Both the position numbers and the translations under genes were made by a program. Shown here piece after piece: positions 10,916 through 62,927 of a stretch of 64,000 bases of DNA. Where the stretch lies: NCBI GenBank assembly GCA_031291995.1, contig JARLHZ010000039.1, positions 18,380 to 82,379 of the forward strand, read 5' to 3'. Each line of letters starts with the position of its first letter. Position 1 is the first letter of the stretch. The stretch is from Candidatus Doudnabacteria bacterium (GTDB lineage: Bacteria; Patescibacteriota; Doudnabacteria; UBA920). The notes below the pieces were generated by a model, which searched no databases, had not been told where the DNA came from, and was given only the letters and a program-made list of their open reading frames with translations.

Positions 10916-10989
10916 TGGCGCCGGCTGAAGGAACTGAACCCTCACTAACGGGTTTGGAATCCGTCGTCTTACCGTTAGACGAAGCCGAC
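10916..10989 (-). tRNA. candidate tRNA-Trp (anticodon CCA)
   Basis: Hand-folded cloverleaf: 7-bp acceptor with one G-U, U8, 4-bp D-stem with A14 and G18G19, anticodon loop UUCCAAA with U33 and A37, 4-nt variable loop, T-arm GAGGG/UUCAGUU/CCUUC, discriminator G, encoded CCA. Weak points are an A-C closing the anticodon stem and G at position 58. Confidence 0.55.
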
Positions 10990-21332: not shown

Positions 21333-23174
21333 TTAAACTTCAATCACGACTGGTAATACCATGGGTCGGCGCTCTGTTTTTTGGTAGAGGTATTCGCCGA
21401 CTTCGTCGCGGACGATGTTGCGGAGGTAGGCGTAGTTGGGCTCGAGTTTTTCTTTGCCTTTGTTTTCCACCAGCTTGCGGACTTCGTGTTTGACTTCGCG
21501 GATGAGGTCGTCGTTGCCCTTCATGTAAATGAAACCGCGGGAAATAATGTCGGGCTGGTTGACCAGTTTGCCGCTGCGGCGGTCGAGAGTCAAAATTATG
21601 ACGAACATCCCGTCCTGGGCCATAACCTGGCGGTCGCGGATAACCACTTCGCCGACATCGCCGACGCCGAGTCCGTCAATAAAGACGTAGCCGGAAGTAA
21701 TTTTGCTGTCTTCCGTGGCGCGGGCTTCTTTGGCGGAATTGATTTCCAAAATTTGGCCGTTGTCGAGCGCGAAAATATTGGCTTCCGGAATACCCATGGT
21801 CCTGGCCAGTTCGGCGTGGGCCACAATCATGTGGTGCTCACCGTGAATAGGCATAAAGAACTTGGGCTTTGTTAGCGCCATCATCAACTTTAATTCTTCC
21901 TGGTGCGCGTGTCCCGAAGTGTGGATGTCCAGCGTTTTGTTGTAAATAACGTGGCTGCCTAAGCGGGTCAGGTTGGAAAGCATGGCGGAAATCGCCCGCT
22001 CATTGCCGGGAATAGGGGAGGCGGAGACAATGGTCGTATCGCCTTTTTTAATTTTTACGGTTTTGTGGTCGCCGCGGGCAATGCGGGCCAAACCAGCCGC
22101 GTCCTCGCCCTGGGCGCCGGTAGTCAGAATAAGAATTTGGTTGTCGGGATATTTTTTAGCCTGTTCGGATTTGATAATAATCTTGGGCTGGATTTTTAAG
22201 TAGCCCAAAGACAGGGCGATTTCTATGTTGTTGACCAGCGAGCGGCCGGTAACAATAACCTTGCGGTTAAATTTTGCCGAGCTGTCAAAGACCTGCTGGA
22301 TACGGGAAATGTTGGTGGAAAAGTTGGCAAAAATAATTCGGCCTTTAATATCCGCAAAAGCGCGGTCTATGGTCAGGCCGATTTCCCGTTCCGAGGCGCA
22401 ATAGCCGGGTTTGGTAGCGTTAGTGGAGTCGGACATCAGCAAAATGACGCCTTCGGCGCCGAACTTGGCGATTTTATCGAACTCCGTGGGCTTGCCGTCG
22501 GCGGGAGTGTGGTCGAATTTCCAGTCGGTGGCGTAAACAATCTGGCCGACCGGCGTGGTAATGCACAAGCCGGTGCTGTCCGGGATGCTGTGGTTAATTC
22601 GGAAAAATCGGACTTTAAAATTTCCCAACGACAATACGTCGTCTTTGGTTAACACGTTAATTTTGGAACGGCCAAGCAAACCGAATTCTTCCAAACGTTT
22701 TTTGATGAAGGCCGCGGTAAGCGCCATGGTGTAAACCGGCGGGTCGCCCAGTTTTGGTAAAATATATGGCACGGCGCCAATGTGGTCCAAATGGCCGTGG
22801 GTAATAATGACTCCGCGGATGCGGCGCTTATTTTCTTCCAGCCATTTGGTGTCGGGAATAATATAGTCTATGCCCGGCATGGTGTCGTCGGGGAAAGCCA
22901 AGCCCATGTCGATTATAATCAGATCATCACCGTATTCCAGTACGGTCATGTTTTCTCCGACTTCTTCCACGCCCCCCATGGGGATAATCCTTAAATTCTG
23001 CCGCGACTGGGTGTAGCGGCTGGTGGCCATTCCGGGAACGAGGGATGTGGCCTTGTTGATTAGCGCGTCTAGCCTGTCGGGCTGTTTTTGCGCTTGCGGC
23101 GCCTGTTGCGGCGCGCCAAAATTGCCGCTTCTGTGCTGTTGCGGGCGCTGATGTTGATGTCTTTTCTGCATCAT
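21333..23174 (-). CDS. rnj: ribonuclease J (metallo-beta-lactamase / beta-CASP)
   Basis: GGVEEVGENMTVLEYGD...IITHGHLDHIGAVPYIL (HxHxDH). Has a basic Gln-rich N-terminal extension. Confidence 0.85.
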   Translation of the reverse strand: MMQKRHQHQRPQQHRSGNFGAPQQAPQAQKQPDRLDALINKATSLVPGMATSRYTQSRQNLRIIPMGGVEEVGENMTVLEYGDDLIIIDMGLAFPDDTMPGIDYIIPDTKWLEENKRRIRGVIITHGHLDHIGAVPYILPKLGDPPVYTMALTAAFIKKRLEEFGLLGRSKINVLTKDDVLSLGNFKVRFFRINHSIPDSTGLCITTPVGQIVYATDWKFDHTPADGKPTEFDKIAKFGAEGVILLMSDSTNATKPGYCASEREIGLTIDRAFADIKGRIIFANFSTNISRIQQVFDSSAKFNRKVIVTGRSLVNNIEIALSLGYLKIQPKIIIKSEQAKKYPDNQILILTTGAQGEDAAGLARIARGDHKTVKIKKGDTTIVSASPIPGNERAISAMLSNLTRLGSHVIYNKTLDIHTSGHAHQEELKLMMALTKPKFFMPIHGEHHMIVAHAELARTMGIPEANIFALDNGQILEINSAKEARATEDSKITSGYVFIDGLGVGDVGEVVIRDRQVMAQDGMFVIILTLDRRSGKLVNQPDIISRGFIYMKGNDDLIREVKHEVRKLVENKGKEKLEPNYAYLRNIVRDEVGEYLYQKTERRPMVLPVVIEV

Positions 23175-23458
23175 TTTGTTAGTGTGTAGTGGTTAGTGTG
23201 TAGTGTGTAGGTGACTAAACCTAACCAAAGCTATTCTGTCCAGGCAAAATGCTTGGACTTATTTATTAAGTTTTGTTATTTAACCCGCTCCAAGTGGTTT
23301 GTAACCGACCCGGACCGGATTCCAAATTAACAAATGACAACCAAAAAGGGGATTTTTAACTGTCATCTGGCAATTGATTTTTGCTTTATTTCAGAGGGAT
23401 TTTTAACAAGTAGTTTAATTATATCACGTCGTGATTTTTTTGTCAATTTTTTTTGTAA

Positions 23459-24895: not shown

Positions 24896-24982
24896 TGGTG
24901 GCCGAGGAGGGACTTGAACCCTCACGACCTTGCGGTCATACGCACCTGAAGCGTACGTGTATGCCAATTCCACCACTCGGCC
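24896..24982 (-). tRNA. tRNA-Leu (anticodon CAG), long variable arm
   Basis: GGCCGAG acceptor pairs with CTCGGCC. D-loop AATTGG. Anticodon stem TACGC/GCGTA with loop TTCAGGT. T-arm GAGGG/TTCAAGT/CCCTC. Closely resembles E. coli tRNA-Leu. Encoded CCA. Confidence 0.85.
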
Positions 24983-25108: not shown

Positions 25109-26860
25109 CTATTTCCACACCCGCCTGGTGTCCATATACCAGCTTTCCACCCCGTCAAAGCGCTGGCTGGAATCGTAGAGAGAATTTATTGAGACATTCT
25201 TGACGTCCGCATCCTGGATATACTGGTATACGGCCTGGTCCAAAAATAATACCGGGGTTTTTGCTAAAATCAGGCCGCTGATTTGCTGGTAATCCTGGGC
25301 GCGCAGTTGGTAGTTGGTAGTGGTTTCGGCGTCTACAATCAGCTGGTCAACAGTCGGGTCGGAAAAACCGGTGAGGTTTAACCCCGGGTCTTTTATCTGG
25401 CTGCTGTGCCAAAAATGAAAAGGGTCGGGGTCGGCGCCGAATTTTTGCGGGTAAAGTAAAACGTCAAAATTTCGGGGTTTGATGGTATTATCGGTTAAAA
25501 GTTGGTTGGGCAAAATTGCCAGGGAAACTTTTATTCCCAGCTGGCTCCACTGGCTGGCCAGAAGCTGGGCGGTTGAGCTGTTTACCGAAGAATCGCTTGT
25601 CGACAGGGTTAAGCTGAGAGGCTGGCCTTTTTTGGCCCGCAGGCCGGTTTTGGGGTCAACTATCCAGCCGGCCTGGTCGAGCAGGCTTTTGGCCTGGCTG
25701 AGGTCGGTATCGGACGGCAAGACCTGGCGGCTCGACGGGTCGTTAAATACAAACGGCGATACCGGCAAAATGGCCTGTCCTTTAAAAATTTGATCGATAA
25801 TTGCTTTGCGGTCGGTAGCCAGTGCCAGAGCTTGACGGATAGTCTGGTCGGATAAGATTGCATTGTTCAAGTTAAAGAATACCGCCTGGTATTGCTGTAA
25901 GGGAATACTGAGGCTTTTGCTTTGCGGCAGGTTGTTTTGCGTATCCAGTCCGCTGGTTAAAGGACTGAAACCAAACCCCAAAATTTCCCGGCTATGGTAC
26001 GCATTGGGCAGGTCGGTATCGTTATCATAAAATTTAATGTCAATTTCATTAATGCCGGGACGGCCGCCGTAATAATCGCCGTATGCCTGGAGGCTGATTT
26101 GTTCCACTTTGCCGCTCGGTAGTTTTTTGATTTGCTTGACGCTGTAAGGGCCGCTGCCGACGGCTTCGAGATTGTATTTGGATTGCAGGAAGTTTTGGCC
26201 TTCAATGCCGCCCCAAATGCCTTTGGGCAGAATACCGACCGTCAGTTTTTGCAGGAAAGGGCCGGAAATATCCTGAGTTGTAAACTGAACCGAATAATCG
26301 GAAAGTTTGCTCACACTGTCCGATTGCCAGGCCGCGCGAAGAGGGCTTTTAAAATCGGGATCCTGCAAGGTCTGGATGGTAAATACGACATCGTCGGCAG
26401 TTACCGGCTTGCCATTTTGCCATTTGGCGTTATGTTTTAGGTTGATTGTATATTGTTTTTGGTCGGCTGAAATTACCGGCATGCCATCGGCCAGGTCCGG
26501 TACCAGCTGCCCGTTTGAATCATATTTATAGAGGCCGGAAAATATGAGATTGGTCAGCGACAGGTCGGGTTCCTGGCTGGCCAGGAGGGGATTTAAATAA
26601 GTTGGCTGTCCGAGTATTCCTTCGCTGTATGTTCCGCCCTGCGACGGTACGGAAACCGTGTGGCTGTAATAAAAATTAGCCGCCGAAATCCCCAGGCTGA
26701 CAATGGCCAGAGCGGCCAAGATTGCGAGGGTAATTTTTTCGCCTTTCCCCAATAAAGAAAAAACTTTCCTCAGTCGGGAAAGGCTTAAGTCGGGGAGCTC
26801 CTTAAAGCCTAACATCAGGCTTTTGGCAAAAGAGGTTTGGTTGTGGGGGAAACCGTTCAT
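25109..26860 (-). CDS. family-5 (OppA/DppA-like) ABC substrate-binding protein, membrane anchored, orphan (no permease or ATPase adjacent)
   Basis: 583 aa. N-terminal TM. DPDPFHFWHSSQ and overall SBP_bac_5 architecture. Confidence 0.75.
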   Translation of the reverse strand: MNGFPHNQTSFAKSLMLGFKELPDLSLSRLRKVFSLLGKGEKITLAILAALAIVSLGISAANFYYSHTVSVPSQGGTYSEGILGQPTYLNPLLASQEPDLSLTNLIFSGLYKYDSNGQLVPDLADGMPVISADQKQYTINLKHNAKWQNGKPVTADDVVFTIQTLQDPDFKSPLRAAWQSDSVSKLSDYSVQFTTQDISGPFLQKLTVGILPKGIWGGIEGQNFLQSKYNLEAVGSGPYSVKQIKKLPSGKVEQISLQAYGDYYGGRPGINEIDIKFYDNDTDLPNAYHSREILGFGFSPLTSGLDTQNNLPQSKSLSIPLQQYQAVFFNLNNAILSDQTIRQALALATDRKAIIDQIFKGQAILPVSPFVFNDPSSRQVLPSDTDLSQAKSLLDQAGWIVDPKTGLRAKKGQPLSLTLSTSDSSVNSSTAQLLASQWSQLGIKVSLAILPNQLLTDNTIKPRNFDVLLYPQKFGADPDPFHFWHSSQIKDPGLNLTGFSDPTVDQLIVDAETTTNYQLRAQDYQQISGLILAKTPVLFLDQAVYQYIQDADVKNVSINSLYDSSQRFDGVESWYMDTRRVWK

Positions 26861-26865
26861 GGGGT

Positions 26866-26940
26866 CATTAAGTAAAATTAAATATGATTGACCAAAATTA
26901 AGTAAAATTTTACTTAATTTTATTTAATTTTACTTAATTA
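26866..26940. promoter_or_regulatory. nested palindromic operator candidate (four TTAAGTAAAAT half-sites, including a perfect 24-bp palindrome at 26896..26919)
   Basis: Half-site occurs twice forward and twice reverse in the 90 bp upstream of the SBP start codon. Confidence 0.5.
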
Positions 26941-26951
26941 TGTCAATGAAG

Positions 26952-27176
26952 TTATTTGGTAAACAGGAAACCGATGTTAATTAAAATAAATAAAATTCCC
27001 AAGACAATGGTGGCGTAAAATAGCCATTTTTCAAAGCCGCGGCGGGTCTGGACAATGTTGCCGGCGCCGCCGAAGACGTTGGACAGTCCGGAAGACTTGT
27101 TTTGCAGGGCGACGACAATGACCAGCAATAACATGACTAAAATGTTCAAAAACTTAAAAATCGGGCTGGAAAACAT
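26952..27176 (-). CDS. secG: preprotein translocase subunit SecG
   Basis: Two TM helices flanking GLSNVFGGAG...QTRRGFEK, the SecG signature loop. Confidence 0.75.
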   Translation of the reverse strand: MFSSPIFKFLNILVMLLLVIVVALQNKSSGLSNVFGGAGNIVQTRRGFEKWLFYATIVLGILFILINIGFLFTK

Positions 27177-27400
27177 AAGGTTTATGTATTTGGCTGTTAA
27201 AATAAATTGCCCGCTTATTATACTAAGAAAGGGGTATGGGTGTCAATGTCGCGCGGGGGTAGGCAATAGTTGTAGGTTATGGAAGTTAGACTAGGCATAA
27301 GGTGTAGAAAGTAGGCCGTTAGCGCTCATAGCCCTACAACCAACAACCTTTTTCCTTACCACTTTCTATAACTGACAACCATAACCATAGTCATAACCCA

Positions 27401-29386
27401 CTATAAGTATTTTTTGATTCTCTCAGCGGCGGCTTTGCCGACAGCGGCGGTCAGCTCCTCCAAAGACGCCTGACGAATGACGGCAACGGTGCCGAATTTT
27501 GCTTTAAGAATTTTTTTGGTTTTGGGACCGATGCCGGGGATTTCGTCGAGCGCCGATTTTACCGCCTGCTTGCTGCGCAGGTCGCGGTGGAAGGTAATGC
27601 CAAAACGATGGGCTTCGTCGCGCAACCTTTGGAGCATTTGGAGCGCCGGATCATCATGCGATAAAATAATCGGCTCGGGTTTGTCGGGCAGGAATATTTC
27701 CTCAATGCGTTTTGCAAGCCCGATAACGTTAATTGATAATTGTGAATTGTGAATTGTTTCCAGCGCAGCGCTGAGCTGGCCTTTGCCGCCATCAATCACT
27801 ATTAAATCAGGAAGCGGCCAACCGCGGAGCCTCTCTTCCTGCAATGGGAGAGTGCCCCGAGCGTTGTCGAGGGGGGGAGGGTTTGGAGTTTTATCGATGC
27901 TTTCTCCAACCACCCCGTTGCCTGACGGCGACACCCCTCCTTGCCAGGAGGGGAGGCTCCGCGCCAAGCGCCTGCTAAGCATTTCTTTCATCATGGCAAA
28001 ATCGTCGGGCGTGGATTTGCCGCGGATTTTAAATTTGCGGTATTGGCTTTTGGCGGGCAGGCCGTTTGTAAACACCACCATACTGCCAACCGGGTTGGTC
28101 CCCTGGATATTGGAAATGTCGTAACATTCAATGCGCCGCGGAATATCGGCAAGCTTTACCGTATCCCTTAACCTTTCCAAAGCCTTATTAATTTTGTCCA
28201 AATGTCCGGCCTGGTCCGACAGCCACTTGCTCAAATATTCCCGGGCATTGACCGAACCCAGGTTGGTTAGCTCCCTGGCTTTACCTTTTTGGGGAGAGAT
28301 GATTGTAATGCCGCGACCGATGCGCGACTTAACCAATTTTATGATCAAGTTAGCATCAGCCGCCGCGTATTGGGTATAAATAATTTTTGGCACACTTGAC
28401 GTCTCAGCATAGTACTGTTCCAAAAATTTTTGCACAATCTCCGTTCCGTAGTTTTCCGTAGTTCCGGATAGGTTCCGTAGTTCCGCATTGGAGATTTCGT
28501 ATACAAAATTTTCCTTGTCCTGCAATTTCCCCCCGCGGACTTTAAATAAGTTTACGCAGGTATAGCCGTCGGAAGACGCCAGGGACACAATATCCCAGTC
28601 CACTTTTTTGGCCAAAATTACGGTTTGCCGCTCATCCAAAAGTTTGATGGAGTTAAGCTGGTCGCGAAGTCGGGCGGCTTTTTCGAATAACTTATGGGCC
28701 GCGGCCAATTTCATTTCGCTTTGCAGCTGGCGGCTGATTTTCCCGGTATTGCCGGCCAGAAAATCTTCGATTTTTTTTAGGTATAACCGGTAATCATCGA
28801 GGCTGATTTTTCCAATGCACACGCCAGGACAGCGGTGCAGGTGGTAATGGAAACAGGGTTTGCCCGAGACTTTTTCGGCCGAGCAATAAGGAAAAATTTT
28901 GCGCATTAAGTGAAGGGTGTTGCGGATTTTGTAGGCGGCTGTGTAGGGGCCGAAGTACTTAGGGGGCAGGGGTGAGGGGTGAGGGGTGAGGGGAGATTTC
29001 TGTACCCTGTACCCTGTACCCTCAACCCTTCTTGAATAGCCGATTTGCGGAATTTCGGTGGAATAATCGATTTTAATGAAGGCGTAATTTTTGTCGTCGC
29101 GCAGTAAAATATTGTATTTGGGCAAATACTGTTTAATAACGGTATTTTCCAAAAACAGGCTTTCCAGTTCGTTATTAACCACGGTATAACTAAAATCCGC
29201 CGCCTCTTTCATCAGATGCGGAATTTGCGGCCGTTCGTCGTGCCCGGAAAAATACTGCCCCACCCGGCTCCTCAAATTTTTGGCTTTCCCAACATACAAA
29301 ACCTTCCCATCTTTATCCAAAAACTGGTAAACACCGGGCGATTTGGGAACATCTTTAAGTTTTTCACGAAGTGGATTCATCGGCAT
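27401..29386 (-). CDS. uvrC: excinuclease ABC subunit C (UvrC) with in-frame low-complexity insertions
   Basis: N-terminal GIY-YIG (GVYQFLDKDGKVLYVGKAKNLRSRV), UvrBC-interacting region, C-terminal (HhH)2 (IPGIGPKTKKIL). Also contains tandem-repeat-encoded segments. Confidence 0.9.
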   Translation of the reverse strand: MPMNPLREKLKDVPKSPGVYQFLDKDGKVLYVGKAKNLRSRVGQYFSGHDERPQIPHLMKEAADFSYTVVNNELESLFLENTVIKQYLPKYNILLRDDKNYAFIKIDYSTEIPQIGYSRRVEGTGYRVQKSPLTPHPSPLPPKYFGPYTAAYKIRNTLHLMRKIFPYCSAEKVSGKPCFHYHLHRCPGVCIGKISLDDYRLYLKKIEDFLAGNTGKISRQLQSEMKLAAAHKLFEKAARLRDQLNSIKLLDERQTVILAKKVDWDIVSLASSDGYTCVNLFKVRGGKLQDKENFVYEISNAELRNLSGTTENYGTEIVQKFLEQYYAETSSVPKIIYTQYAAADANLIIKLVKSRIGRGITIISPQKGKARELTNLGSVNAREYLSKWLSDQAGHLDKINKALERLRDTVKLADIPRRIECYDISNIQGTNPVGSMVVFTNGLPAKSQYRKFKIRGKSTPDDFAMMKEMLSRRLARSLPSWQGGVSPSGNGVVGESIDKTPNPPPLDNARGTLPLQEERLRGWPLPDLIVIDGGKGQLSAALETIHNSQLSINVIGLAKRIEEIFLPDKPEPIILSHDDPALQMLQRLRDEAHRFGITFHRDLRSKQAVKSALDEIPGIGPKTKKILKAKFGTVAVIRQASLEELTAAVGKAAAERIKKYL

Positions 29387-29449
29387 TTATTATATCGCGG
29401 GCTGGACAGAGTGTCGAGGATTTAATAAGATTTGTCCTAAGGAGGCAGT

Positions 29450-29818
29450 ATGTATTTTACGGGTCCCGAAGAGCCGACTCATCTGTGGCTACAGATTTTA
29501 CTCGCTTTGATTATCTGGACGGTTTTTTTGTTGAGCGTCGCGTGTTATTTGTGGTATAGACGTACGCATATCAGGTCGGGCAAAGTCCGCGTGCGTCTCA
29601 CGGAGGAGGAAGTGGAAACGGAATATCGGATGCTTTCGTGGAATAAAACCGGTCAAACTTTTGTCGAACCGATTCAGTTGAAGCTTCTCATCCTGTACCG
29701 AAAAAGCATCGGCGCTTGGTTAAAAAATCGGGCTCGGAGAAAAAAGGTGCTCGGCAGAGTCCGATCGCTCCGGATGCTGGCTAGTTCCGACGAGCCTAAG
29801 GAGGACGGATACCGATGA
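29450..29818 (+). CDS. small membrane protein
   Basis: SD AAGGAGG before the ATG. One TM. 122 aa. Confidence 0.6.
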   Translation: MYFTGPEEPTHLWLQILLALIIWTVFLLSVACYLWYRRTHIRSGKVRVRLTEEEVETEYRMLSWNKTGQTFVEPIQLKLLILYRKSIGAWLKNRARRKKVLGRVRSLRMLASSDEPKEDGYR

Positions 29819-29957
29819 TAATCATTCATTGGCAAAAGGGCAAATGGAACGGACGACAGCTCCATATTTACCAAGCGCTCTCAACCGTGATTTATCTTTT
29901 GGCCTTGTGCGGCCTGGTCAGTGTGGCTTTATTTTTTTACAGGCTACTTGGTTAACC
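29817..29957 (+). CDS. 46-aa membrane peptide (translationally coupled, ATGA overlap)
   Basis: Read manually: MIIIHWQKGKWNGRQLHIYQALSTVIYLLALCGLVSVALFFYRLLG. Below the ORF-track size cut-off. Confidence 0.4.
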
Positions 29958-30051
29958 CGCCGCCGACGTTGTTTGTTCGGCCGCGGGTTTTTGTTTTGTC
30001 TTGACAGTGGTACGTATTTCGGGCAATATTTATCCACCTCGGGAGGAATAA

Positions 30052-30240
30052 ATGAAATTGTCGCAGAACTTTCCACAAATGACCATACACGAGTTCTTGA
30101 TTGAATTTTTGGTGGCCATAATGATCATCGTGGTGCCGGTGCCCGTTATCATCGTCGGATGGATTTGGGATCGCCTTGGCGATCTGATAAGTTTAATCCC
30201 GGCTGAACTGCGTGAGAGGGCAAATCGCAGTAACCAATAA
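30052..30240 (+). CDS. small membrane protein
   Basis: SD GGGAGGA before the ATG. One TM. Terminator follows at 30241..30274. Confidence 0.55.
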   Translation: MKLSQNFPQMTIHEFLIEFLVAIMIIVVPVPVIIVGWIWDRLGDLISLIPAELRERANRSNQ

Positions 30241-30274
30241 CCCGGACCGTCGCGATTGACAGGCCGGGTTTTTT
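30241..30274 (+). terminator. Rho-independent terminator
   Basis: Stem CCCGGACC...GGCCGGG followed by TTTTTTATTT. Confidence 0.6.
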
Positions 30275-30458
30275 ATTTCTTGAAGAAAAATGCAATTATC
30301 GGAATATTATCTCTATTGAACAAATTTTCTAATAAACAGCCCATAAATGGGCTAACTACGTAAAGTTAAGGTTTAAGAATATCCAGCCCTTAGTCCCTTG
30401 CCATCTCTTGACTTAGGTGGTAGAATTGTTACTAGTTTGTGGCTACGGATATTAGAAG

Positions 30459-30566
30459 AATACACTGCAGAAAACTACGGAATTTACGGAATTTGATAAA
30501 CCGTACTTCTGAATTCTGTAGTTCCGCAGTTTTCCGTAGTGAGATTAATTTAAATTCCGCAGTTGT
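30459..30566 (+). promoter_or_regulatory. uvrA upstream region with multiple TTCCG(T/C)AG(T) half-sites in direct and inverted arrangement (candidate operator, possibly DNA-damage regulon)
   Basis: AAAACTACGGAA...TTCCGTAGT inverted pair plus ACGGAATTT x2 and TTCCGCAG x2 directly before the uvrA ATG. The same motif is repeated inside uvrC. Confidence 0.45.
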
Positions 30567-33449
30567 ATGCAAGACAAAATAAGTGTCCGGGGAGCCCGGA
30601 TGCACAATTTAAAAAATCTGGACGTGGATTTGCCAAGGAATAAGCTGGTGGTACTAACCGGCTTGTCCGGAAGCGGCAAGTCGTCTTTGGCGTTTGATAC
30701 AATTTACGCCGAAGGCCAGCGCAGGTACGTGGAATCGCTTTCGGCTTATGCCCGACAGTTCATTGGCCTAATGGATAAGCCGGATGTGGACAAAATAGAA
30801 GGGCTGAGCCCGGCCATATCCATCGACCAAAAATCAGCTTCCCATAACCCGCGCTCGACCGTGGGCACGGTTACGGAAATTTACGACTATTTGCGCTTGC
30901 TGTACGCGCGTATTGGCATTCCCCACTGTCCGGTTTGCGGTAAAAAAATTACCGGACAGACTTTGCAGGCTATGGTGGAGCAATTGTTGAATTTGCCAGA
31001 GGGAACCAAGCTGATGCTTTTGGCGCCTTTTGTGCGCGACCAAAAAGGGGAACACAAACATATTTTTGAACAGGTAAAAAAAGCCGGTTTTGCACGCGTT
31101 CGCGTTGACGGCACGGTTATGGATTTAAACGAAGCGCAATCGCTAAACCTCGACAAGCAGAAAAAACATTATATTGACGTAGTGGTAGACCGCATTGCCG
31201 TATCTAAAAACGACCGTTCCCGGATATCGGAAAGTTTGGAAAAAGCTTTGGACTTGGGAGACGGCTTAGTCGTGGTATTGCGGGCTGACGCGGAATCACG
31301 CGGAAATACTGCAACGCGGAACCACGCGGAAAATAATCAAAAAGAAATTACCATGTCGCAGAACTTTGCCTGTCCCGACGGGCATATGTCCTTAAACCAA
31401 CTGGATCCGAGGGATTTTAGTTTTAACAGTCCGCACGGCGCCTGCCCGGAATGCAAGGGCCTGGGCACCAAACTGACAGTGGAGCCCGACCTGGTAATAC
31501 CCAACCAAAGGCTGACTTTGGCCGAAGGAGCCGTGCGCCCCTGGAGCAAAACCACTTCGCGGCTGTCGTGGTATTCCCGCATTATGGAGGCCGTGGCCAA
31601 AGAATACGGTTTTTCCACCAATACCCCGGTTAAAGACCTGCCCAAAAAATTTGTCGATATAATTTTATATGGCACCGGCGACAAAAAAGTCCGCGTCTCG
31701 GGCGAGTTTCGCGGCGGCGAAGGCGAATTTGAAATGAATACCGCATTTGAAGGCGTTATCCCGAACCTCCAGCGCCGCTACCGCGAAACCGATTCCGAAT
31801 ATATGCGCAGTGAAATAGAAAATTACATGCGTGTCCGCCAATGCCAGGTCTGTCTGGGCAAGCGGCTAAAGCCCGAAGTTTTGGCCGTAACCGTGGGCGG
31901 CCGGGGGATTGTGGACGTATCCAACATGCCCATAGATTTAACCGCGGAATTTTTTAAAAATCTGCCCAAAGAGTTGAACGCCAGGGACACGGCCATTGCC
32001 CGGCAAATTTTAAAGGAAATTAACGCGCGCCTGTCGTTTTTATTAAATGTGGGATTGGCTTATTTATCGCTCGACCGTACGGCCGACACGCTTAGCGGCG
32101 GGGAAGCGCAGCGTATCCGACTGGCCACGCAAATCGGGTCCGGTTTGACCGGAGTCCTCTATATATTAGACGAGCCGTCCATTGGCCTACACCAGCGCGA
32201 CAACCGCAAACTCCTCCAGACGCTTAAGGATTTGCGCGATTTGGGCAATACGGTAATTGTGGTGGAGCACGACGAGGAAACCATCCGCGAAGCCGACTGG
32301 GTGGTGGATATTGGCCCGGGCGCGGGCAAGCACGGCGGCGAACTGGTGGCCGAAGGCACTCCCAAAGACATCGAAAAAAATCCCAAGAGCATAACCGGGC
32401 AATATTTGGCCGGCAAGGAATTTATAGAGGTTAGCAAGCGCCGCCGCCCGGGCAACGGGCGCAAGCTGACCATTGTGGGCGCCGAGGAATTTAATTTAAA
32501 AGATATTACTGTGGACATTCCGCTCGGGAAGTTTGTCTGCGTTACCGGCGTGTCGGGCAGCGGTAAATCCACTTTGCTTAACGAAATTCTGGCCAAAGCC
32601 CTGAATCATTATTTTTTTAACAGCAAAGACGAACCGGGCAAGCATAAAAAAATTCTAGGACTGGAACATTTGGACAAAATTATCAACATTGACCAATCGC
32701 CAATCGGGCGGACGCCCCGCAGCAATCCGGCCACTTACACCGGATTGTTTACCCCGATTCGCGATTTGTTTGCCGATACCAAAGAGGCCCGCATGCGCGG
32801 CTATAAATCCGGACGGTTCAGTTTTAACGTTAAAGGCGGCCGGTGCGAAAAATGTTCGGGCGACGGCGTTATTCAGGTGGAAATGAATTTTTTGCCGGAT
32901 GTCTATATTACCTGCGACGAATGCCACGGCAAGCGCTACAACCAGCAGGCGCTGGAAATCCACTATAAAGACAAAACCATTTCCGATGTTTTGGAAATGA
33001 CCGTGGACGAAGCCAAAATCTTTTTTGCCAACTTGCCGCAAATCCACAAAAAACTGGAAACGCTTTCGCAGGTCGGTTTGGGCTATATGAGGCTCGGCCA
33101 AAACGCCACCACTTTGAGCGGCGGGGAAGCGCAACGGATTAAACTGGCTACGGAATTGTCGCGCGCGTCCACCGGGCGGACTTTATATTTGCTGGATGAG
33201 CCGACTACGGGATTGCACTTTGCCGATATTAAACGGCTAGTCCAGGTACTGAATAAATTGGTGGACAAAGGCAATACGGTGGTGGTCATTGAACATAATT
33301 TGGACATGATTAAAACCGCGGACTGGCTAATAGACTTAGGCCCCGAAGGCGGCAACAAAGGCGGCACGCTGGTAGCCGCGGGCACGCCGGAAGATGTGGT
33401 TAAAGTAAAAGCCAGTTACACCGGGCAGTATTTAAAAAAAATGCTGTAA
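30567..33449 (+). CDS. uvrA: excinuclease ABC subunit A (UvrA)
   Basis: 960 aa. Two ABC ATPase modules ([23 protein letters not shown]; [10 protein letters not shown]), Zn-finger cysteines and LSGGEAQRI signatures. Confidence 0.95.
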
Positions 33450-34242: not shown

Positions 34243-34372
34243 CATCATTGTCATTGCGAGACACGTACCGGACGGTACTGTGGCAAGGGAGTGTCCGCCG
34301 GAGGCGCATCTGCCTCAGGCACGACACCAGACGAAGCAATCTATCGATTGAAGATTTAATAAGATTGCTTCC
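34243..34372. repeat. dispersed palindromic repeat (CATTGCGAG...CGAAGCAATCT / AGATTGCTTCC family), copy 1
   Basis: Shares the GTCATTGCGAG and GAAGCAATCT modules with copies at 37615.., 43020.. and an intragenic fragment at 40795... Terminal hairpin GAAGCAATCT...AGATTGCTTC. Confidence 0.65.
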
Positions 34373-34494
34373 AATTATGCCGAAACTGCGGCGGTCCGGT
34401 CGGATGTTCCTACAACGACAAAAAATCAGTAAATTAGCATAAACCGCACAGGATAAATCTAAACCTTTTTGGTTTATGTTAGAGAAAGTAATAT

Positions 34495-37531: not shown

Positions 37532-37614
37532 AAAGGATATAAACCACAATAGACAAAATTGACCCCTCCTTCGCTAAAGCTACGGAGGGTAAGCAAAAAT
37601 TAACGAACAAACTG

Positions 37615-37692
37615 TGCCATTGCGAGGGAGTGCATCCGACCGAAGCAATCTTTATCCTCGATAAGATCGCTTCGGCTGCACTCGCGATGACA
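37615..37692. repeat. dispersed palindromic repeat, copy 2 (complete ~80-nt hairpin)
   Basis: 5' arm CATTGCGAGGGAGTGCATCCGACCGAAGCAATCT is complementary to 3' arm AGATCGCTTCGGCTGCACTCGCGATG. Sits in the 5' leader of paralogue 3. Confidence 0.7.
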
Positions 37693-37712
37693 CCCAGGAA
37701 GGAAAATAAATT

Positions 37713-39969: not shown

Positions 39970-40482
39970 ATGCCCACAATTGAATCTAAAATAATGTATA
40001 TGGAGCCGAAAGTAACGCCAAGGCCGGTGGCTATGCGGGTGTTTATTGGCATTGCAAAAGTTGCTTTGTATATCGCTTTTGTCGCGGCCGCGGTTTACTA
40101 CACCCCAAAAATTTTATCGCGAACCCTGCATACCCAGTACCCGCTGGCCACCATTACCTCCGGTTCCATGTGGCCGGTTCTAAAAGTTAACGATTTGATA
40201 TTAATGAAAGGCATAACCGCGGACCAGGCGCAAATTGGCCAGATTATTGTTTACCAAAGCGGCAAGGGCTATGTTATTCACCGGCTAATTCGCTTGCAGG
40301 ACGGAAAATTAATTACCCAGGGAGATGCCAACGACGTGGAAGACGCGCCGGTCAGCCCGAGCCAGGTGGTGGGACGGATTGTCTATGTTTTTGGCAGCCA
40401 TCCGTTCAGGATTCCATATTTGGGAATTGTGGCCCGGAGTTTGGGTCCGACGGTGCAGGAATTGGAGAAGGGGAGGAGTTAA
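39970..40482 (+). CDS. sipW: SipW-type (S26B, Ser/His) signal peptidase I
   Basis: N-terminal TM, catalytic-Ser box SGSMWPVL, then GDLILM and His box YVIHRLI. The ORF-track start at 39934 lies inside the palindromic repeat, so ATG 39970 (MPTIESK) is preferred; the start is uncertain. Confidence 0.8.
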   Translation: MPTIESKIMYMEPKVTPRPVAMRVFIGIAKVALYIAFVAAAVYYTPKILSRTLHTQYPLATITSGSMWPVLKVNDLILMKGITADQAQIGQIIVYQSGKGYVIHRLIRLQDGKLITQGDANDVEDAPVSPSQVVGRIVYVFGSHPFRIPYLGIVARSLGPTVQELEKGRS

Positions 40483-40489
40483 AATTACA

Positions 40490-40590
40490 AATTAAAAATT
40501 TTAAATTTCAAGTCAAAATCCAATTCCAAATTTTTAAATTCAAAACTTTGGCATTGATTTGAAATTTGACATTTGACATTTAGCGCCGGG
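40490..40590. repeat. AT-rich palindromic intergenic module R3
   Basis: Arms AAATTTCAAGTCAAAATCCAA and TTGATTTGAAATTTGACATTTGACATTT are complementary. Paralogue of R2. Confidence 0.65.
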
Positions 40591-40612
40591 TCTTTAGCAA
40601 ATCCACTTTATA

Positions 40613-43009
40613 ATGAACCAAAAACACCCGAAAATTAAAAAAGGATTGGATATCGGGGAGCCGAAAATCGGACGGTTGGTTTTAGCCGTGCCGAAACCTA
40701 AATCTAAGGCCAAAAAATTTGTGGCCATGGAAGACATCAGGGCTTCATTTTTAAACTCAGATAGAGATAAAAAGAAAATAGTAAAAATTACTGGTGTCAT
40801 TCCGAGCGCGGCCGGGGAATCCCTTATACCAAAAAAATTATCAAGCGTCGCGAAAACCCCCGAATTAATTCCGGAAATTGACACGGTAAAACCGGAAACT
40901 AAGCCATTAGTTACGACCCAGCCGTTTATTAGCAGTCTGATTATCCGGCAGAAATCGCGGATTAAACTTTTGCCAAAAACATTTACGGCTTTTAAGCTGG
41001 CCGCCTTGACTGTGTTATGCCTAATTGTGAGCATCCCGGCCATGTCGGCTTTTGAAGCGCATGTGGTAAACGTTACCGCCCAGTTAAAAGAAATTACCCC
41101 GCCAACATTAACGCCGCCCGGGAGTTCCGTGGCCTGGGACGACCATAACGGCGGCACTAATTTGTCCGGAAATATTAATGTGGTAATGAGTGATGGTTAC
41201 ATAGACGCGTCGGATATTTATTATACTTTCGGCACCGGCACCATTGACCCGGGCACAGTGCCCAATCCCGTTTGCGGCCAGACCGGGCCAAACGGCGGCG
41301 GGGGAGACAAAACCCTGCCCCAGCAATTAAGCATAAATGCCGATACCGTAATAAAAGCCATTGCCTGCGATGGGATAACCGGTACTGCTCACAGCAGTTA
41401 CGTAAACACCAAAATTTATTCCTTCGGCCAGCCGGTGCAAAATCTGGTCATTAATGAATTCCTGCCAAATCCGACCGGAACCGCGGCGGGCAACCAGGGC
41501 GTATCGGGCGGGCATAATACCGGCAACGGCGGCGAGTGGGTGGAACTCTACAACAACGGCACCTCCACCATAGATACCGACGGCTTCGTGCTGTATGACG
41601 ATTTTGTTCCCACAACCACTCCAGCCAGCCAAACCTGGACCACCAACAGCGATTTTAATTCCGTGCCTCCGCCCATAGAGGGCAGTACAACCGTAAGCGG
41701 AGGCAGTGTGTTATTGACTGCCGGTTCTTTGAGCGGGACATTTGAAAAAGTTTTTGACATCGGCACCAATAAAAAAGCTTCCTGGGGCAATGTTACTATG
41801 GCCAATACCATTACCGATCCGGCCGCTTTGGTTTGCCTGTCCGCGGCTACGTCCGACGACGGCGTTAATTTTACGCCTTACGTCAGCTTGGGCTTGAATT
41901 CGTGCGCCACTGCTTCCTCAACCTCCATCTCCTTGTCCCTGGCCTCCCTGCCCCAGTCGCGCTTTATTAAATGGCAGGCCGCTTTTAGCCGAAACGATGC
42001 GACCAAGGCGCTAAGTTTGAATTCATTGAGCATCAATTACAGTTTTGTTGATTACAATACTTATCACGAATTGGTTATTACGACCGACAACACCAATAAC
42101 ACGTTGGCGCCGGGGACAACTATTATGGATCCGGGCGACTTTTTGGTGGTGTACCGCGACGGCAATCCCAATTTTGATTTGGACTCGCAGGTTAATGCGG
42201 CATCTTTGTATGACGGCCATTTGTATTTGGGCGCGGGACTAATAGACAGCCATGCCTATGACCTGGGCGGGTCCGTGCCGGTTGGTAATTCCATAGCCCG
42301 CATTCCGAACGGCAGCAGCAACTGGGTCGACCCATGCCCCACGCCCGGCGCGCCCAATACGGCGGACTGTTTAATTCCGGCTAATGTTTCCACCACCACG
42401 CCGGACAGCCTGGCAGACGCCACCTCAACGCCCGATTCAACCTCAACGATTATCAGCGATACCGGCGCGACTTCAACTCCGGACACCGCAACTTCCACGG
42501 ATATTAGTGCTGGCGGCAGCAGCGTCACGGCAACTTCAACTGATGCCACCTCGACGCCCGAAGCTGACGGTGCGTCCGATACTACCATTTCCACTTCCAC
42601 GGACGCATCCGCACAAATCCCGCCGCCGGATAATTCCACAACCACGACTGTTTCAACTACTTCTCCCGATTTATCTACAATTACCACTCCGACGCCAACA
42701 CCAGGGACAACGGTACCCGGCAATAATATAGATCAGGCTCCGGCTGATAATTCTTCCGGTGTTTCCACGCCGCCTGTTTCTCCGCCGCCTGTTTCTCCGC
42801 CGCCTTCATCGGATCAAAGCGCACCGGCCAATCCGCCGGTTGACAATTCCGACTCCTCCAAACAGCCCGATGCCATAACCCCGCCGCAGCAAAACCAACA
42901 GCCCGCGGTTACCCCCGCCCCCACCTCCTCCGGCGGCGATGGCTCGCCTCCGCCTCCTCCGCCTGCCGATCCGACACCAGCCACCGCGGATTCATCTTCA
43001 GGCAGTTAA
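40613..43009 (+). CDS. surface protein, paralogue 4: cytoplasmic N-extension, TM with SAFEAHVVNVTA motif, lamin-tail-like domain, P/T/S-rich tail
   Basis: MSAFEAHVVNVTAQLKEI follows a 120-aa N-region that contains a repeat-derived segment (GVIPSAAGESLIP). LVINEFLPNP...EWVELYNNG matches the LTD fold. Confidence 0.75.
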   Translation: MNQKHPKIKKGLDIGEPKIGRLVLAVPKPKSKAKKFVAMEDIRASFLNSDRDKKKIVKITGVIPSAAGESLIPKKLSSVAKTPELIPEIDTVKPETKPLVTTQPFISSLIIRQKSRIKLLPKTFTAFKLAALTVLCLIVSIPAMSAFEAHVVNVTAQLKEITPPTLTPPGSSVAWDDHNGGTNLSGNINVVMSDGYIDASDIYYTFGTGTIDPGTVPNPVCGQTGPNGGGGDKTLPQQLSINADTVIKAIACDGITGTAHSSYVNTKIYSFGQPVQNLVINEFLPNPTGTAAGNQGVSGGHNTGNGGEWVELYNNGTSTIDTDGFVLYDDFVPTTTPASQTWTTNSDFNSVPPPIEGSTTVSGGSVLLTAGSLSGTFEKVFDIGTNKKASWGNVTMANTITDPAALVCLSAATSDDGVNFTPYVSLGLNSCATASSTSISLSLASLPQSRFIKWQAAFSRNDATKALSLNSLSINYSFVDYNTYHELVITTDNTNNTLAPGTTIMDPGDFLVVYRDGNPNFDLDSQVNAASLYDGHLYLGAGLIDSHAYDLGGSVPVGNSIARIPNGSSNWVDPCPTPGAPNTADCLIPANVSTTTPDSLADATSTPDSTSTIISDTGATSTPDTATSTDISAGGSSVTATSTDATSTPEADGASDTTISTSTDASAQIPPPDNSTTTTVSTTSPDLSTITTPTPTPGTTVPGNNIDQAPADNSSGVSTPPVSPPPVSPPPSSDQSAPANPPVDNSDSSKQPDAITPPQQNQQPAVTPAPTSSGGDGSPPPPPPADPTPATADSSSGS

Positions 43010-43019
43010 CAAACCAGTA

Positions 43020-43125
43020 TCATTCCGAGCGACCCTGAGGGAGCCGCCATCGGCGGCGAGCCGAAGGGGAGCCGAGGAATCCCTTAACTCTGATAATAAG
43101 TTTAATGTTAAGGGATCCCTCCGCT
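43020..43125. repeat. dispersed palindromic repeat, copy 3 (CATTCCGAGCG...GAGGAATCCCTTAAC / GTTAAGGGATCCCTC)
   Basis: Variant of the CATTGCGAG family with a 15-bp terminal hairpin. Confidence 0.6.
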
Positions 43126-61703: not shown

Positions 61704-62927
61704 ATGATGATTCCACTAAAGGATAAAATCGAAACAGAGCTGGCCAAAGCATCCGGCATTTCCATTATCAGCTTAGTGCACGATTTGATTATTTACGCTC
61801 ATAGCATCCGCTCTTCCGATATACATTTGGACCCCGCGGAGAAGTCGTTGAGATCCCGGTTTCGGGTCGACGGCGTCCTGCGCGATACTTTCAGTTTTCC
61901 CAAACATATCCATTCTGAAATTATTTCCCGGATTAAAATTCTGTCCGGACTGCGGACGGACGAACACCAGGCCGCCCAGGATGGTCGGTTCCGTTTGAAT
62001 GTGGAAGGTCAAAGCCCGCTGGACATCCGCGTGTCCATTGCCCCGACCTATTACGGAGAAAACGCGGTGCTAAGGCTGTTGGCCGACCGGGCGGAAAATT
62101 TTACTTTGGAAACCCTGGGTTTTAGTGAACAAAACCGCAGCATCATCGCTAAAGCCGTCAACAGGCCTTACGGGATGATTTTGGTTACCGGCCCCACGGG
62201 CAGCGGCAAGACCACCACGCTCTATACCATTTTAAAAATGCTGAATACGCCGCAGGTTTCGATTGTGACCATAGAAGACCCGGTGGAATACGCGGTGGAA
62301 GGCGTGGAGCAGATTGGCGTGAACCCGCGCACCGGCCTGACTTTTGCCCATGGCTTGCGCAGCATTTTAAGGCAGGATCCCAACATTATTATGGTCGGGG
62401 AAATCCGCGACGCGGAGACCGCCGGAATCGCCATAAATGTGGCGCTGACCGGGCATCTGCTGTTGTCCACCCTGCACACCAACGACCCGGCCACGACTTT
62501 GCCGAGATTGCTTGACATGAAAATAGAAAGTTATTTGGTGGCGTCCACGGTTAACGTGGCTGTCGGCCAGCGGCTGGTCCGAAAAATTTGCCCGAACTGC
62601 AGGCGGCAGGAAAAAATTACCGCCGCCCAATCCAAAAATCTGGCGGAAATTTTTGGTTTGCAGCCACCGCACGACCGCGCCATGCTTTATTCCGGCAAAG
62701 GCTGTGCCGACTGCAATTATTCGGGCTACCGCGGCCGGATTGCCCTGCACGAAATTATTGAAATTTCAGAACCGATTCGCGAAGCGATTTTGCGAAAAGC
62801 CACGGCGCGCGAAATCAACAGTATTGCCATTGCGCAGGGAATGATAACTATGATGGAGGACGGACTGGAAAAGGCACTGGCGGGCATTACGACTATTGAA
62901 GAGGTACTCAGGGTTGGGCATGAATGA
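61704..62927 (+). CDS. type II secretion / type IV pilus assembly ATPase (GspE/PilB family, short form)
   Basis: Walker A GPTGSGKTTTLYT, Asp box IIMVGEIRD, His box TGHLLLSTLHTND, tetracysteine CPNC...CADC. Confidence 0.85.
   Translation: MMIPLKDKIETELAKASGISIISLVHDLIIYAHSIRSSDIHLDPAEKSLRSRFRVDGVLRDTFSFPKHIHSEIISRIKILSGLRTDEHQAAQDGRFRLNVEGQSPLDIRVSIAPTYYGENAVLRLLADRAENFTLETLGFSEQNRSIIAKAVNRPYGMILVTGPTGSGKTTTLYTILKMLNTPQVSIVTIEDPVEYAVEGVEQIGVNPRTGLTFAHGLRSILRQDPNIIMVGEIRDAETAGIAINVALTGHLLLSTLHTNDPATTLPRLLDMKIESYLVASTVNVAVGQRLVRKICPNCRRQEKITAAQSKNLAEIFGLQPPHDRAMLYSGKGCADCNYSGYRGRIALHEIIEISEPIREAILRKATAREINSIAIAQGMITMMEDGLEKALAGITTIEEVLRVGHE

Follow-up and report, generated by a model that had tools for sequence, protein, structure and literature searches.

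The uvrC-uvrA locus and its repeats

The stretch of DNA analysed here, 64 kb of a metagenome-assembled genome of Candidatus Doudnabacteria (Patescibacteria) referred to throughout as the window, contains the uvrC gene of nucleotide excision repair (NER) and, divergent from it, uvrA, with two small open reading frames (ORFs) without known function between them. Short tandem repeats and palindromes occupy several places inside uvrC and also the leader in front of uvrA (Table 1). Comparison with related loci shows that these repeats are DNA-level features with a fast turnover, homogenised within arrays and between nearby arrays, that the arms of the palindromes are kept complementary, and that the repeats survive in frame only where the structure of UvrC tolerates them.

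The uvrC gene has 661 codons and is intact, its reading frame passing through all of the arrays. The protein is 100% identical to a 'Candidatus Doudnabacteria' UvrC at NCBI and matches the complete set of Pfam domains (GIY-YIG, UVR, UvrC_RNaseH, UvrC_RNaseH_dom and HHH_5). The true start of the gene is probably the second ATG, at 29380 (MNPLREKL...), in agreement with the N-termini of orthologues. From the end of the promoter-like site in front of it the distance is 2 nucleotides (nt) to the first ATG and 8 nt to the second (29378-29386 region), and this spacing implies a leaderless or nearly leaderless mRNA, from which uvrC is probably translated with the second ATG as its start.

The comparison set consisted of the window and 86 related loci (87 sequences), 80 of these loci being from GTDB species genomes; the divergent order of uvrA and uvrC is found in 68 of the 80. 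DNA was sampled within about 6 kb of uvrC in the relatives, which are referred to by L numbers, and over the whole 64 kb of the window. Tandem arrays were sought in 1.03 Mb, comprising the window and 84 of the 86 related loci (85 of the 87 sequences), as repeats of at least 2.7 copies with at most one mismatch, and locally shuffled sequence served as the control. Twenty-one proteins of the window were scanned against Pfam.

Table 1. Genes, promoter-like sites and repeat-built features around uvrC and uvrA, in window positions
Feature	Position	Strand	Basis
SBP_bac_5 gene	25109..26860	-	
Palindrome of tandem units (ATTAAGTAAA)n / (AATTTTACTT)n with 28-nt perfect core	26867..26938		z -6.0
uvrC	27401..29386	-	ORF list, translation
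uvrC site 5, heptamer array in the turn after the GGKGQL helix	27738..27757	-	Tandem Repeats Finder (TRF)
uvrC site 4, imperfect palindromic element of 141 nt, in frame	27823..27963	-	Inverted repeat search, RNA fold
uvrC site 2, loop in the first RNase H-like domain	28444..28491	-	Three exact TTCCGTAGTT units and degenerate copies
uvrC site 1, linker joining the GIY-YIG domain to the Cys-rich module, with two adjacent heptamer arrays	28965..29030	-	TRF, codon alignment
uvrC promoter-like site, TCGACA-17-TATAAT	29389..29417	-	Consensus scan, 11/12 positions
uvrA promoter-like site, TTGCCA-17-(TGg)TAGAAT	30398..30426	+	Consensus scan
uvrA 5' leader, long imperfect palindrome ending at the ATG	30441..30566	+	Fold, inverted repeat
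uvrA coding sequence, control gene without heptamer arrays	30567..33449	+	Pfam

Tandem arrays in the uvrC gene of the window

The original prediction placed three in-frame tandem arrays in uvrC, and all three were recovered (27738-57, 28444-91 and 28968-29022), as were the two peptides quoted with them, AELRNLSGTTENYGTE and SPLTPHPSPLPP, which are both encoded by the uvrC ORF. At site 1 TRF delimits AGGGGTG x3.7 at 28968-28993 and CTGTACC x3.3 at 29000-29022; in sense orientation these are (AGGGTAC)x3.3 followed by (TCACCCC)x3.7, encoding EGTGYRVQKSPLTPHPSPLPP, and the template (+) strand reads GGGG-TGA-GGGG-TGA-GGGG-TGA-GGGG. At site 2 two copies of TTCCGTAGTT occupy 28444-28463 (TRF); another exact copy lies at 28473-28482, and degenerate ones continue to 28491. 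The sense unit of this site, GGAACTACGGAA, is read in all three frames to give AELRNLSGTTENYGTE. The array at site 5 is AATTGTG x2.9, or (CACAATT)x2.9 in sense, encoding IHNSQLSI; it had been described as AATTCAC in two copies, and although the array is real its copy number is about three. None of the three sites has a significant hairpin-like fold (site 1, -30.2 kcal/mol, z -1.7; sites 2 and 5, z -1.7 and -0.6 against shuffles), and an Rfam search of 26800-30700 at a permissive threshold returned only a chance mir-207 match on the site-1 arrays (24 bits vs a gathering score of 88).

The (+) strand from 28966 to 28996, GGGGG-CA-GGGG-TGA-GGGG-TGA-GGGG-TGA-GGGG, which is the template strand of uvrC, has the canonical motif of a G-quadruplex. 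A Pif1-like helicase, of a family known to unwind G-quadruplexes, is encoded elsewhere in the window, at 7330-8694 (-).

Length variation and structure of UvrC

In alignments of 25 and then 120 orthologues the length of UvrC varies at fixed places only, and control segments never vary. Among the 120 orthologues site 1 ranges from 9 to 80 amino acids (aa), site 2 from 11 to 76, site 4, which lies before DGGKGQ, from 2 to 55 and site 5 from 10 to 31, the values for the window's protein being 25, 24, 46 and 14, respectively. The N-terminus and a rare site 3 are further variable places. The window's UvrC is near the clade median at sites 1, 2 and 5 and is long only at site 4. Site 5 aligns without a real gap to the structures 3c65, 2nrt and 8b0q, so that it has the same length as its homologues in the PDB and is not an insertion. 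An AlphaFold2 model of the protein has a mean predicted local distance difference test (pLDDT) score of 85.9, with low values around aa 121-140 and 301-310 (block means of 54-67 at site 1) and high values at site 5.

The arrays had been described as insertions into an otherwise canonical UvrC. This is only partly right. All 120 orthologues differ in length at the same sites; sites 1, 2 and 5 are typical of the clade, and site 5 is no insertion at all. The only large insertion, that at site 4, had been missed. Its arms, an inverted repeat of 32 nt each at 27823-27854 and 27932-27963, are 75% complementary; there is a terminal inverted repeat of 11 bp (CGCGGAGCCTC / GAGGCTCCGCG), and internal hairpins such as CCCCTCCTGGCAAGGAGGGG are present. 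The insertion amounts to about 42 aa (aa 478-519) directly before PDLIVIDGGKGQL and leaves the ORF intact. As RNA it folds at -74.1 kcal/mol (z -3.6), and none of 200 shuffles was as stable. Residues 478-519 are absent from the C-terminal UvrC structures 3c65, 2nrt and 8b0q, and in the AlphaFold2 model aa 480-519 fall below a pLDDT of 50 between confident flanks. A homologue of the element was found in L083 only (84/132 nt). When each element of the window, those of site 4, site 1 and the leader included, was compared by blastn with the window itself and with 1 Mb of related loci, no further copies emerged beyond the sharing of units, the sole exception being a conserved counterpart, in L006, of the palindrome at 26867..26938. 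No target-site duplication was noticed on reading the sequence, although no dedicated search for one was made, and there is no transposase among the 21 proteins scanned against Pfam.

Arrays and palindromes across related loci

Tandem arrays of period 7 are strongly and specifically in excess, with 85 in the 1.03 Mb and none in the shuffled control. Period 6 follows with 19 vs 2; periods 4 and 5 are at chance, and periods 8-15 are almost without arrays. Sixty-four of the 85 heptamer arrays lie strictly inside uvrC (68 with edge cases at the N-terminus), a gene that makes up 15% of the DNA, and uvrA has none in 195 kb, or 19% of the DNA; about six are in other ORFs and 11 in non-coding DNA. The enrichment in uvrC corresponds to a rate ratio of 16.7 (binomial p 1.7e-34), and 37 of 85 uvrC genes have at least one such array. 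In the window alone three of six heptamer arrays are in uvrC, and its large surface proteins carry triplet-based repeats instead. The arrays in uvrC are 19-35 nt long, mostly of about three units, and nearly every one has a unit of its own. A period of 7 nt is out of step with the codons, so that every unit comes to be read in each of the three frames; it is the DNA, and not the protein, that is repetitive.

The variable positions that carry repeats are the N-terminus, the linker between the GIY-YIG and Cys-rich parts, a loop of the first RNase H-like domain, the loop that precedes DGGKGQ and the turn that follows it. At these four or five sites the repeats are of three types, all in frame: short tandem units (mostly 7 nt, but 8-10 nt at site 2), perfect palindromes, and palindromic elements of 100-140 nt. 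Perfect palindromes of at least 24 nt number 19 vs 0 in shuffles. Palindromes built of tandem units number 28 vs 2 with a strict detector; these lie mostly in leaders or just downstream of genes, and each has its own unit.

The sense strand of the uvrC arrays is poor in G (7.4% vs 20.8% for the gene), with 36 of 68 arrays lacking G altogether and only three lacking C. Avoidance of stop codons was considered as a cause and rejected, since an enumeration of stop-free heptamers predicts 21.5% G and 18% of units without G.

The reading frame of uvrC is intact in 82 of 85 genes, and the three exceptions look like assembly errors or deletion. In L075 (5980-7690) aa 1-35 and aa 161-661 are matched in different frames, and both the GIY-YIG domain and site 1 are missing; this uvrC may have undergone a deletion or be a pseudogene. 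The differences between near-identical strains are substitutions or triplet indels, and no indels of single units were seen at their arrays. The length difference between the proteins P0074 and P0132 is a 12-aa deletion in the Cys motif, away from the repeats.

Site contents among close relatives

The UvrC proteins of the four closest relatives, L081-L084, have 68-73% aa identity to that of the window according to the search table and 71-75% when aligned columns are counted. In a codon alignment with these four, every variable site is built of repetitive DNA and the repeats differ by species. Site 1 holds (AGGGTAC)3 and (TCACCCC)3 in the window, (AGGGTTG)3 and (TCRCCCC)4 in L082, (GGTCAAA)4 in L083 and a palindromic element of about 100 nt (RRHSEG...LRMTPE) in L084; L081, like L082, has (TCRCCCC)n and (AGGGTTG)n at this place. 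At site 2 there are CTACGGAA arrays in the window and L084, CGGATAA arrays in L082, and perfect palindromes of 36 nt in L081, L083 and L055; these three palindromes lie at the same uvrC codons and have different arms, fully compensated, around a GGCC centre. The 141-nt element at site 4 is confined to the window and L083; L081 and L082 have other elements there, and L084 has (AGGATTA)n. Heptamers make up site 5 in the window and every close relative (CACAATT, AACAATT, TTACAAC and GCTACMA). The sharing of sites is a mosaic, the window being about 80% identical to L084 and L082 at site 2, 82% to L081 at site 1, about 80% to L081 at site 5, and similar to L083 alone at site 4. Overall, each of the four relatives is 70-73% identical.

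The sequences of the units are species-specific but concerted within one array, and the arms of the palindromes change together. Sites 1, 2 and 5 are 2.5-3.5 times richer in mismatches between the strains L085 and L086, which have 88.5% nt identity, and the site-2 units have all changed in parallel, from CTACAAAT to CTACGRAT. Within a genome one unit is often found again in another array at a distance of 1-3 kb: CTACACC at aa 157 and aa 570 (L042), AAATCTT at the N-terminus and aa 518 (L060), ACAAGTT in uvrC and an intergenic hairpin (L009), ACCCGAAT at sites 1 and 2 (L010), and AAATATC at site 5 and in the uvrA leader (L076). Larger elements also recur in different settings. The site-2 element of uvrC in L010 and the uvrA leader of L055/L082 have about 80% identity across about 78 nt; an intergenic segment of the window, 37614-37656, matches in-frame elements of L081 at site 4 (38/42) and of L084 at site 1 (30/34); and a perfect palindrome of 30 nt, TCCGCCAAAGGCGGATCCGCCTTTGGCGGA, is found within uvrC in L083 and immediately upstream of the gene in L058.

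Several further observations concern these families. Intergenic palindromes resembling repetitive extragenic palindromes (REPs), of the widespread 'CATTGCGAGG...GAAGCAATC' type, lie in the window at 37591-37712, 34300-34440 and 43005-43104, and the copy at 37614-37656 is of the same family as the in-frame uvrC elements at site 4 of L081 and site 1 of L084. At the start of uvrC in L082, L083, L002 and L060 an AAATCTW heptamer array encodes NLKSKI, a conserved peptide of the UvrC N-terminus; the same unit reappears at site 1 (L016, L041 and L059) or near aa 518 in others, giving a recurring peptide, NLKSKILN. Perfect palindromes of 26-42 nt with a central GGCC and unrelated arms (CGTGGCCACG, CACGGCCGTG, CTCGGCCGAG and GCGCGGCCGCGC) occur at uvrC site 2 and in intergenic DNA (L016 12622, L053 4008, L079 8251, L055 6936, L081 4888 and L083 4876), and may represent a distinct family with a conserved core.

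The motif common to uvrC site 2 and the uvrA leader

Exact copies of TTCCGYAGTT number six in the 64 kb, against 0.30 expected, and none of 100 shuffles reached six. Three lie at 28444-28482 in uvrC and three at 30473-30564 in the uvrA leader, which upholds the earlier observation that the motif of the uvrC array is repeated upstream of uvrA and shows that its enrichment is limited to these two places. The shorter TCYGYAGT occurs 13 times in the window, with 3.5 expected, nine of them in site 2 and the leader, and the 20 nt at 28443-62 and 30521-40 are 95% identical.

Arrays of the related unit CTACRGAW are present at site 2, at the same codons and in the same frames, in at least 14 related species, and the conserved codons just upstream (GTnTACGAA, VYE) look like the seed of these units. 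As an 8-mer CTACRGAW shows no overall excess in the 1 Mb of related DNA (132 vs about 126 expected); of its 18 clusters, eight are at uvrC site 2 and six in the uvrA leader, and the other four belong to leaders of secG or of genes for solute-binding proteins (SBPs), or follow an SBP gene. Within one genome, site 2 and the leader have most in common in the window, at 26 shared 7-mer positions (mean 1.9; rank 1 of 43), and sharing is also clear in L084, with 14. Covariation of the site-2 and leader units is significant only on account of the window and L084 (p 0.007 with the window included, 0.06 without it). L085/L086 have CTAC arrays at uvrC site 2 and uvrA leaders without any array.

Repeat-built leaders of uvrA and other genes

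A block conserved in Doudnabacteria, CTTGCC-N4-CTTGACA-N3-GTGGTAnAAT-N6-ACTAGTTTGT, precedes uvrA in the window (30388-30440), in L002, L003, L013, L059 and L084, and in other relatives. It is more conserved than a promoter alone would require, and ACTAGTTTGT, which coincides with the predicted start of transcription, might be a genuine regulatory element. The leader that follows is about 134 nt long, with units of ACTRCGGAA / TACGGAATT in its left arm and TCYGYAGT in its right arm, and has no visible Shine-Dalgarno sequence. It folds at -47.4 kcal/mol (z -5.0; 0/200 shuffles as stable) and matched no Rfam family.

In about 25 related species the uvrA leader has the same architecture in the same place but is built of other units. 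The leader units seen from one species to another are ACTACGGAA, CTACAGAA, ACGCTGAA, CGCGAAAA, ACTAAAT, ACCCGAAT, TACGAAT and AACAGT. By locus they are CTACAGAA/TCTGTAG in L005, L006, L009, L013 and L084; ACGCTGAA/TCAGCGT in L001 and L058; CGCGAAAA/TTCGC in L002; ACTAAAT/ATTAGTA in L003 and L015; ACCCGAAT/ATTCGGG in L055 and L082; TACGAA/TTCGTA in L049, L075 and L079; and AACAGT/CACTAT in L042, L047 and L048. Six relatives (L008, L014, L027, L041, L052 and L073) have a short leader without a palindrome despite the conserved promoter block. The sense strand of the uvrA leaders was the more stable in 20 cases and the antisense strand in 18 (p 0.87), so that there is no strand bias; this equal folding gives no sign of selection on the RNA and fits an origin at the level of DNA. 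A structured regulatory RNA in the 5' untranslated region had been a candidate on account of the stable fold at a conserved position, but was set aside for want of a sense-strand bias and of an Rfam family.

Arrays like those of the uvrA leader, including ones of CTAC type, also precede secG (L037 and L079) and SBP genes (L060 and the window, 26867-26938). The palindrome in the window fronts the SBP_bac_5 gene and overlaps its promoter-like site; it is this feature that has a conserved counterpart in L006.

Other leaders in the window are likewise built of repeats. That of the RNase J gene (21333..23174, -) is TAGTGTG x4.4 at 23175-23215 (sense CACACTA, free of G; repeat-rich at 23178-23210), directly upstream of the ATG and without a Shine-Dalgarno sequence; the leader at 40482-40612, before the gene at 40613, contains (AAATTAC)x4.3 ... 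(ATTTGAC)x3.6 with a hairpin; and that at 62925-63059, before the gene at 63060, has about eight GATATTAA-type units (fold z -3.5). Between the uvrC stop and the secG promoter (27250-27400) about 150 nt, first purine-rich and then pyrimidine-rich (GGTTATGG...CCATAACC), resemble a degraded long palindrome, the fold of which is not significant (z -0.7). The window also contains tRNA-Leu(CAG) at 24896-24982 (-) and tRNA-Trp(CCA) at 10916-10989 (-).

Discussion

The arrays in uvrC and the repeats of the uvrA leader are probably the products of a lineage-wide generation and homogenisation of repeats and palindromes at the level of DNA, and not operators bound by a protein. Replication slippage would build the arrays, often seeded from adjoining conserved codons, such as AGAAGGGTTGAG (RRVE) for AGGGTTG, GTnTACGAA (VYE) for CTACGAA and CTTAAATCTAAAATC (LKSKI) for AAATCTW. 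Intra-strand or ectopic template switching, or gene conversion, might then keep the arms of palindromes complementary and copy units across 1-3 kb, including between uvrC site 2 and the uvrA leader, which are 2 kb apart. Part of the larger elements could be truly dispersed mini-elements. Selection would purge repeats that break the frame or the fold, with only disordered or tolerant loops keeping them, and the translated strand may be filtered as well, as the strong depletion of G from the sense strand suggests. The unit TTCCGTAGTT would on this account be a member of the CTACRGAW family, old at uvrC site 2, that spread locally to both arrays of one sub-lineage.

Quasi-palindrome correction and slipped-strand mutagenesis by template switching, reportedly established in E. 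coli by Ripley, Lovett and others, offer a mechanistic parallel. Template switching acts on DNA, perfects imperfect palindromes and duplicates short units, and would yield compensated arms without selection and hairpins without a strand bias. It is known as a mechanism of point-mutation hotspots, and is not known to construct or maintain families of arrays in one gene throughout a bacterial class.

Several points weigh against generation of the repeats by slippage and their retention by tolerance. These two processes leave the dominance of period 7 unaccounted for, and a 7-nt unit cannot expand one at a time within an ORF without a frameshift. Likewise unaccounted for is that the loops of uvrC have about 20 times more arrays per kb than non-coding DNA (by a rough estimate of the non-coding length), and uvrA, ligA, SBP genes and the window's large surface proteins carry almost none. 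The depletion of G, not being due to the avoidance of stop codons, points to a filter on RNA or protein or to a strand-specific mechanism. The mechanism itself is inferred. It is conceivable, although distinctly unlikely, that uvrC is instead the dedicated target or sink of an undescribed, locus-specific process that writes species-specific short units, as 7-nt arrays poor in G on the sense strand and as perfect palindromes with a GGCC core, into defined codons and neighbouring leaders, with functional consequences. If so, NER could be tuned through linker length, mRNA structure or G-quadruplexes on the template strand, or uvrA and uvrC might be coupled by complementary RNA.

The palindromes and arrays might alternatively be non-autonomous mobile elements, of the kind known as miniature inverted-repeat transposable elements, REPs or Rickettsia palindromic elements (RPEs), mobilised in trans, of which only in-frame insertions into uvrC survive. 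We think this unlikely, although it has a good deal in its favour: members of one family lie between genes in the window and in frame within uvrC of relatives, the ACCCGAAT hairpin element is found at uvrC sites 1 and 2 and in the uvrA leaders of different species, site 4 has its 11-bp terminal inverted repeat, the occupancy of sites is a mosaic, and some uvrA leaders resemble empty sites. There is moreover a precedent for in-frame palindromic insertions in RPEs, palindromes of about 100-150 bp that lie in frame in housekeeping genes at positions compatible with the protein fold (Ogata et al. 2000, 2002, as summarised in PMC10969869). The site-4 element, which is 141 nt long, in frame, disordered and missing from solved UvrC structures, is like them, as are the RRHSEG...LRMTPE and VIARSTSDEAIL elements of relatives and the family with both intergenic and in-frame members. 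However, RPEs are multi-copy in many unrelated genes of a genome, whereas the site-4, site-1 and leader elements of the window are single-copy in the sampled DNA (64 kb from the genome itself and 1 Mb from relatives); the insertions here are concentrated in one gene at recurrent sites, and most are short tandem units and small perfect palindromes, not one conserved element. Insertion would have to strike the same four or five codon positions repeatedly. The arrays look seeded from neighbouring conserved codons and the units drift continuously between species without forming discrete families, and neither a target-site duplication (for which no dedicated search was made) nor, among the 21 proteins scanned, a transposase came to light. 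The suggestion that the motif is a dispersed mini-repeat is supported insofar as families of units and hairpin elements recur at coding and leader sites, both within the locus and from species to species, but TTCCGYAGTT itself is not dispersed in the window.

The other possibility raised by the original prediction, a regulator binding site shared by the two NER genes, is not supported. It would have TTCCGTAGTT bound by a common regulator, LexA-like or other, or the uvrC mRNA, through its sequence ACUACGGAAAACUACGGAAC, base-paired over 19/20 nt to the 3' arm of the hairpin in the uvrA leader, and in the latter version the uvrC message would open or close the uvrA start codon and so couple the output of UvrA and UvrC. 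The confinement of the motif to uvrC and the uvrA leader in the 64 kb, a leader hairpin that sequesters the AUG in the absence of a Shine-Dalgarno sequence, the location of 14 of the 18 CTACRGAW clusters and the strength of within-genome sharing in the window and L084 all speak for such a link. We nevertheless hold it to be very unlikely, the operator reading failing on conservation, on specificity to repair genes and on position. The leader units vary from species to species and the hairpin is absent from some that have the same promoter; equivalent arrays of CTAC type stand before secG and SBP genes; and the copies in uvrC lie about 900 nt inside the gene. L085/L086 have CTAC units in uvrC and none in the uvrA leader, the sharing loses significance when the window is left out, the leaders show no bias in stability towards the sense strand, and no LexA-type protein (Peptidase_S24/LexA) was matched among the 21 window proteins scanned. 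The repeats do resemble the SOS operators of uvrA in lying between promoter and start codon and in the inverted symmetry of the motif, but there is no box conserved across species, units of 8-10 nt extend over about 125 nt where a LexA operator is a dyad of 14-16 bp, and the architecture is found at non-repair genes and its units deep inside uvrC.

It is exceedingly doubtful that uvrC is a contingency locus, in which repeats of non-triplet length would make the gene phase-variable and provide a reversible NER switch like the repeat-mediated mutator switching in mismatch-repair genes. Phase variation driven by simple sequence repeats is well known (PMC4692102), and a unit that is not a multiple of 3, in period-7 arrays at four sites of a DNA-repair gene and sometimes at its extreme 5' end, might be expected of such a locus. 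Copy numbers are low, however, with arrays of 19-35 nt and mostly about three units, and 82 of 85 uvrC genes are intact, the exceptions being of the dubious kind described above. Near-identical strains do not differ by single units, and several arrays in one gene would multiply the rate of switching off without obvious benefit. Hardly any credence can be given to the repeats being merely chance or protein-level features of flexible UvrC linkers, with no special DNA process behind them. The length of UvrC linkers varies in bacteria generally, and the sites are loops and linkers of low model confidence. Set against this are the 85 vs 0 heptamer arrays, which are read in all three frames and in which the repetition is not at the protein level, the perfect 36-nt palindromes inside the ORF, the presence of the same units in non-coding arrays, and the lack of arrays in uvrA and the surface proteins.

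Two other classes of repeat invite comparison with the arrays. The short tandemly repeated repetitive (STRR) heptamers of cyanobacteria (Nostoc) and Xanthomonas, such as GGGGA(C/T)T and GGGAATC, have one or a few consensus units throughout the genome; they are over-represented between genes and under-represented within ORFs (PMC4692102). The specific excess of period 7 and the typical copy number of 3-4 are shared with them, and the (GGGGTGA)n array has the four G-tracts typical of G-quadruplex-forming heptamers; unlike them, almost every array here has its own unit, about 80% are inside one ORF, and the sense strand is poor in G. Species-specificity is a feature of a further class. The DNA uptake sequences and uptake signal sequences of the Neisseriaceae and Pasteurellaceae are species-specific 9-12-mers with dialects, often in inverted pairs, with a reported bias to genome-maintenance genes and a density of about 1 per kb genome-wide. 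The repeats at uvrC and uvrA likewise have species-specific short units with dialects between relatives, inverted pairs and a genome-maintenance gene as host, but TTCCGYAGTT occurs only six times in 64 kb, all of them in one 2-kb locus (28444-30564), and a function in DNA uptake was rejected on this low density.

A full-text literature search found no description of in-frame palindromic elements or of a heptamer excess in the candidate phyla radiation (CPR), nor of a repair gene as the main host of repeats. The present analysis removes a tempting annotation, in that the repeats in front of uvrA are not an SOS-like operator held in common with uvrC. A class of the CPR with very compact genomes has DNA that looks selfish or slippage-derived inside a repair enzyme of essential type, apparently the first record of this. 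The specificity is at the level of the gene, about 80% of the heptamer arrays near the locus being in uvrC and none in uvrA, contrary to the usual rule that such repeats are intergenic and avoid ORFs. The range of UvrC lengths in the clade, 590-850 aa, reflects junk-like cassettes, which makes trouble for alignments, phylogenies and gene assembly. The uvrC gene of these bacteria is at the same time a natural system in which the birth, homogenisation and filtering of repeats in coding DNA may be followed.

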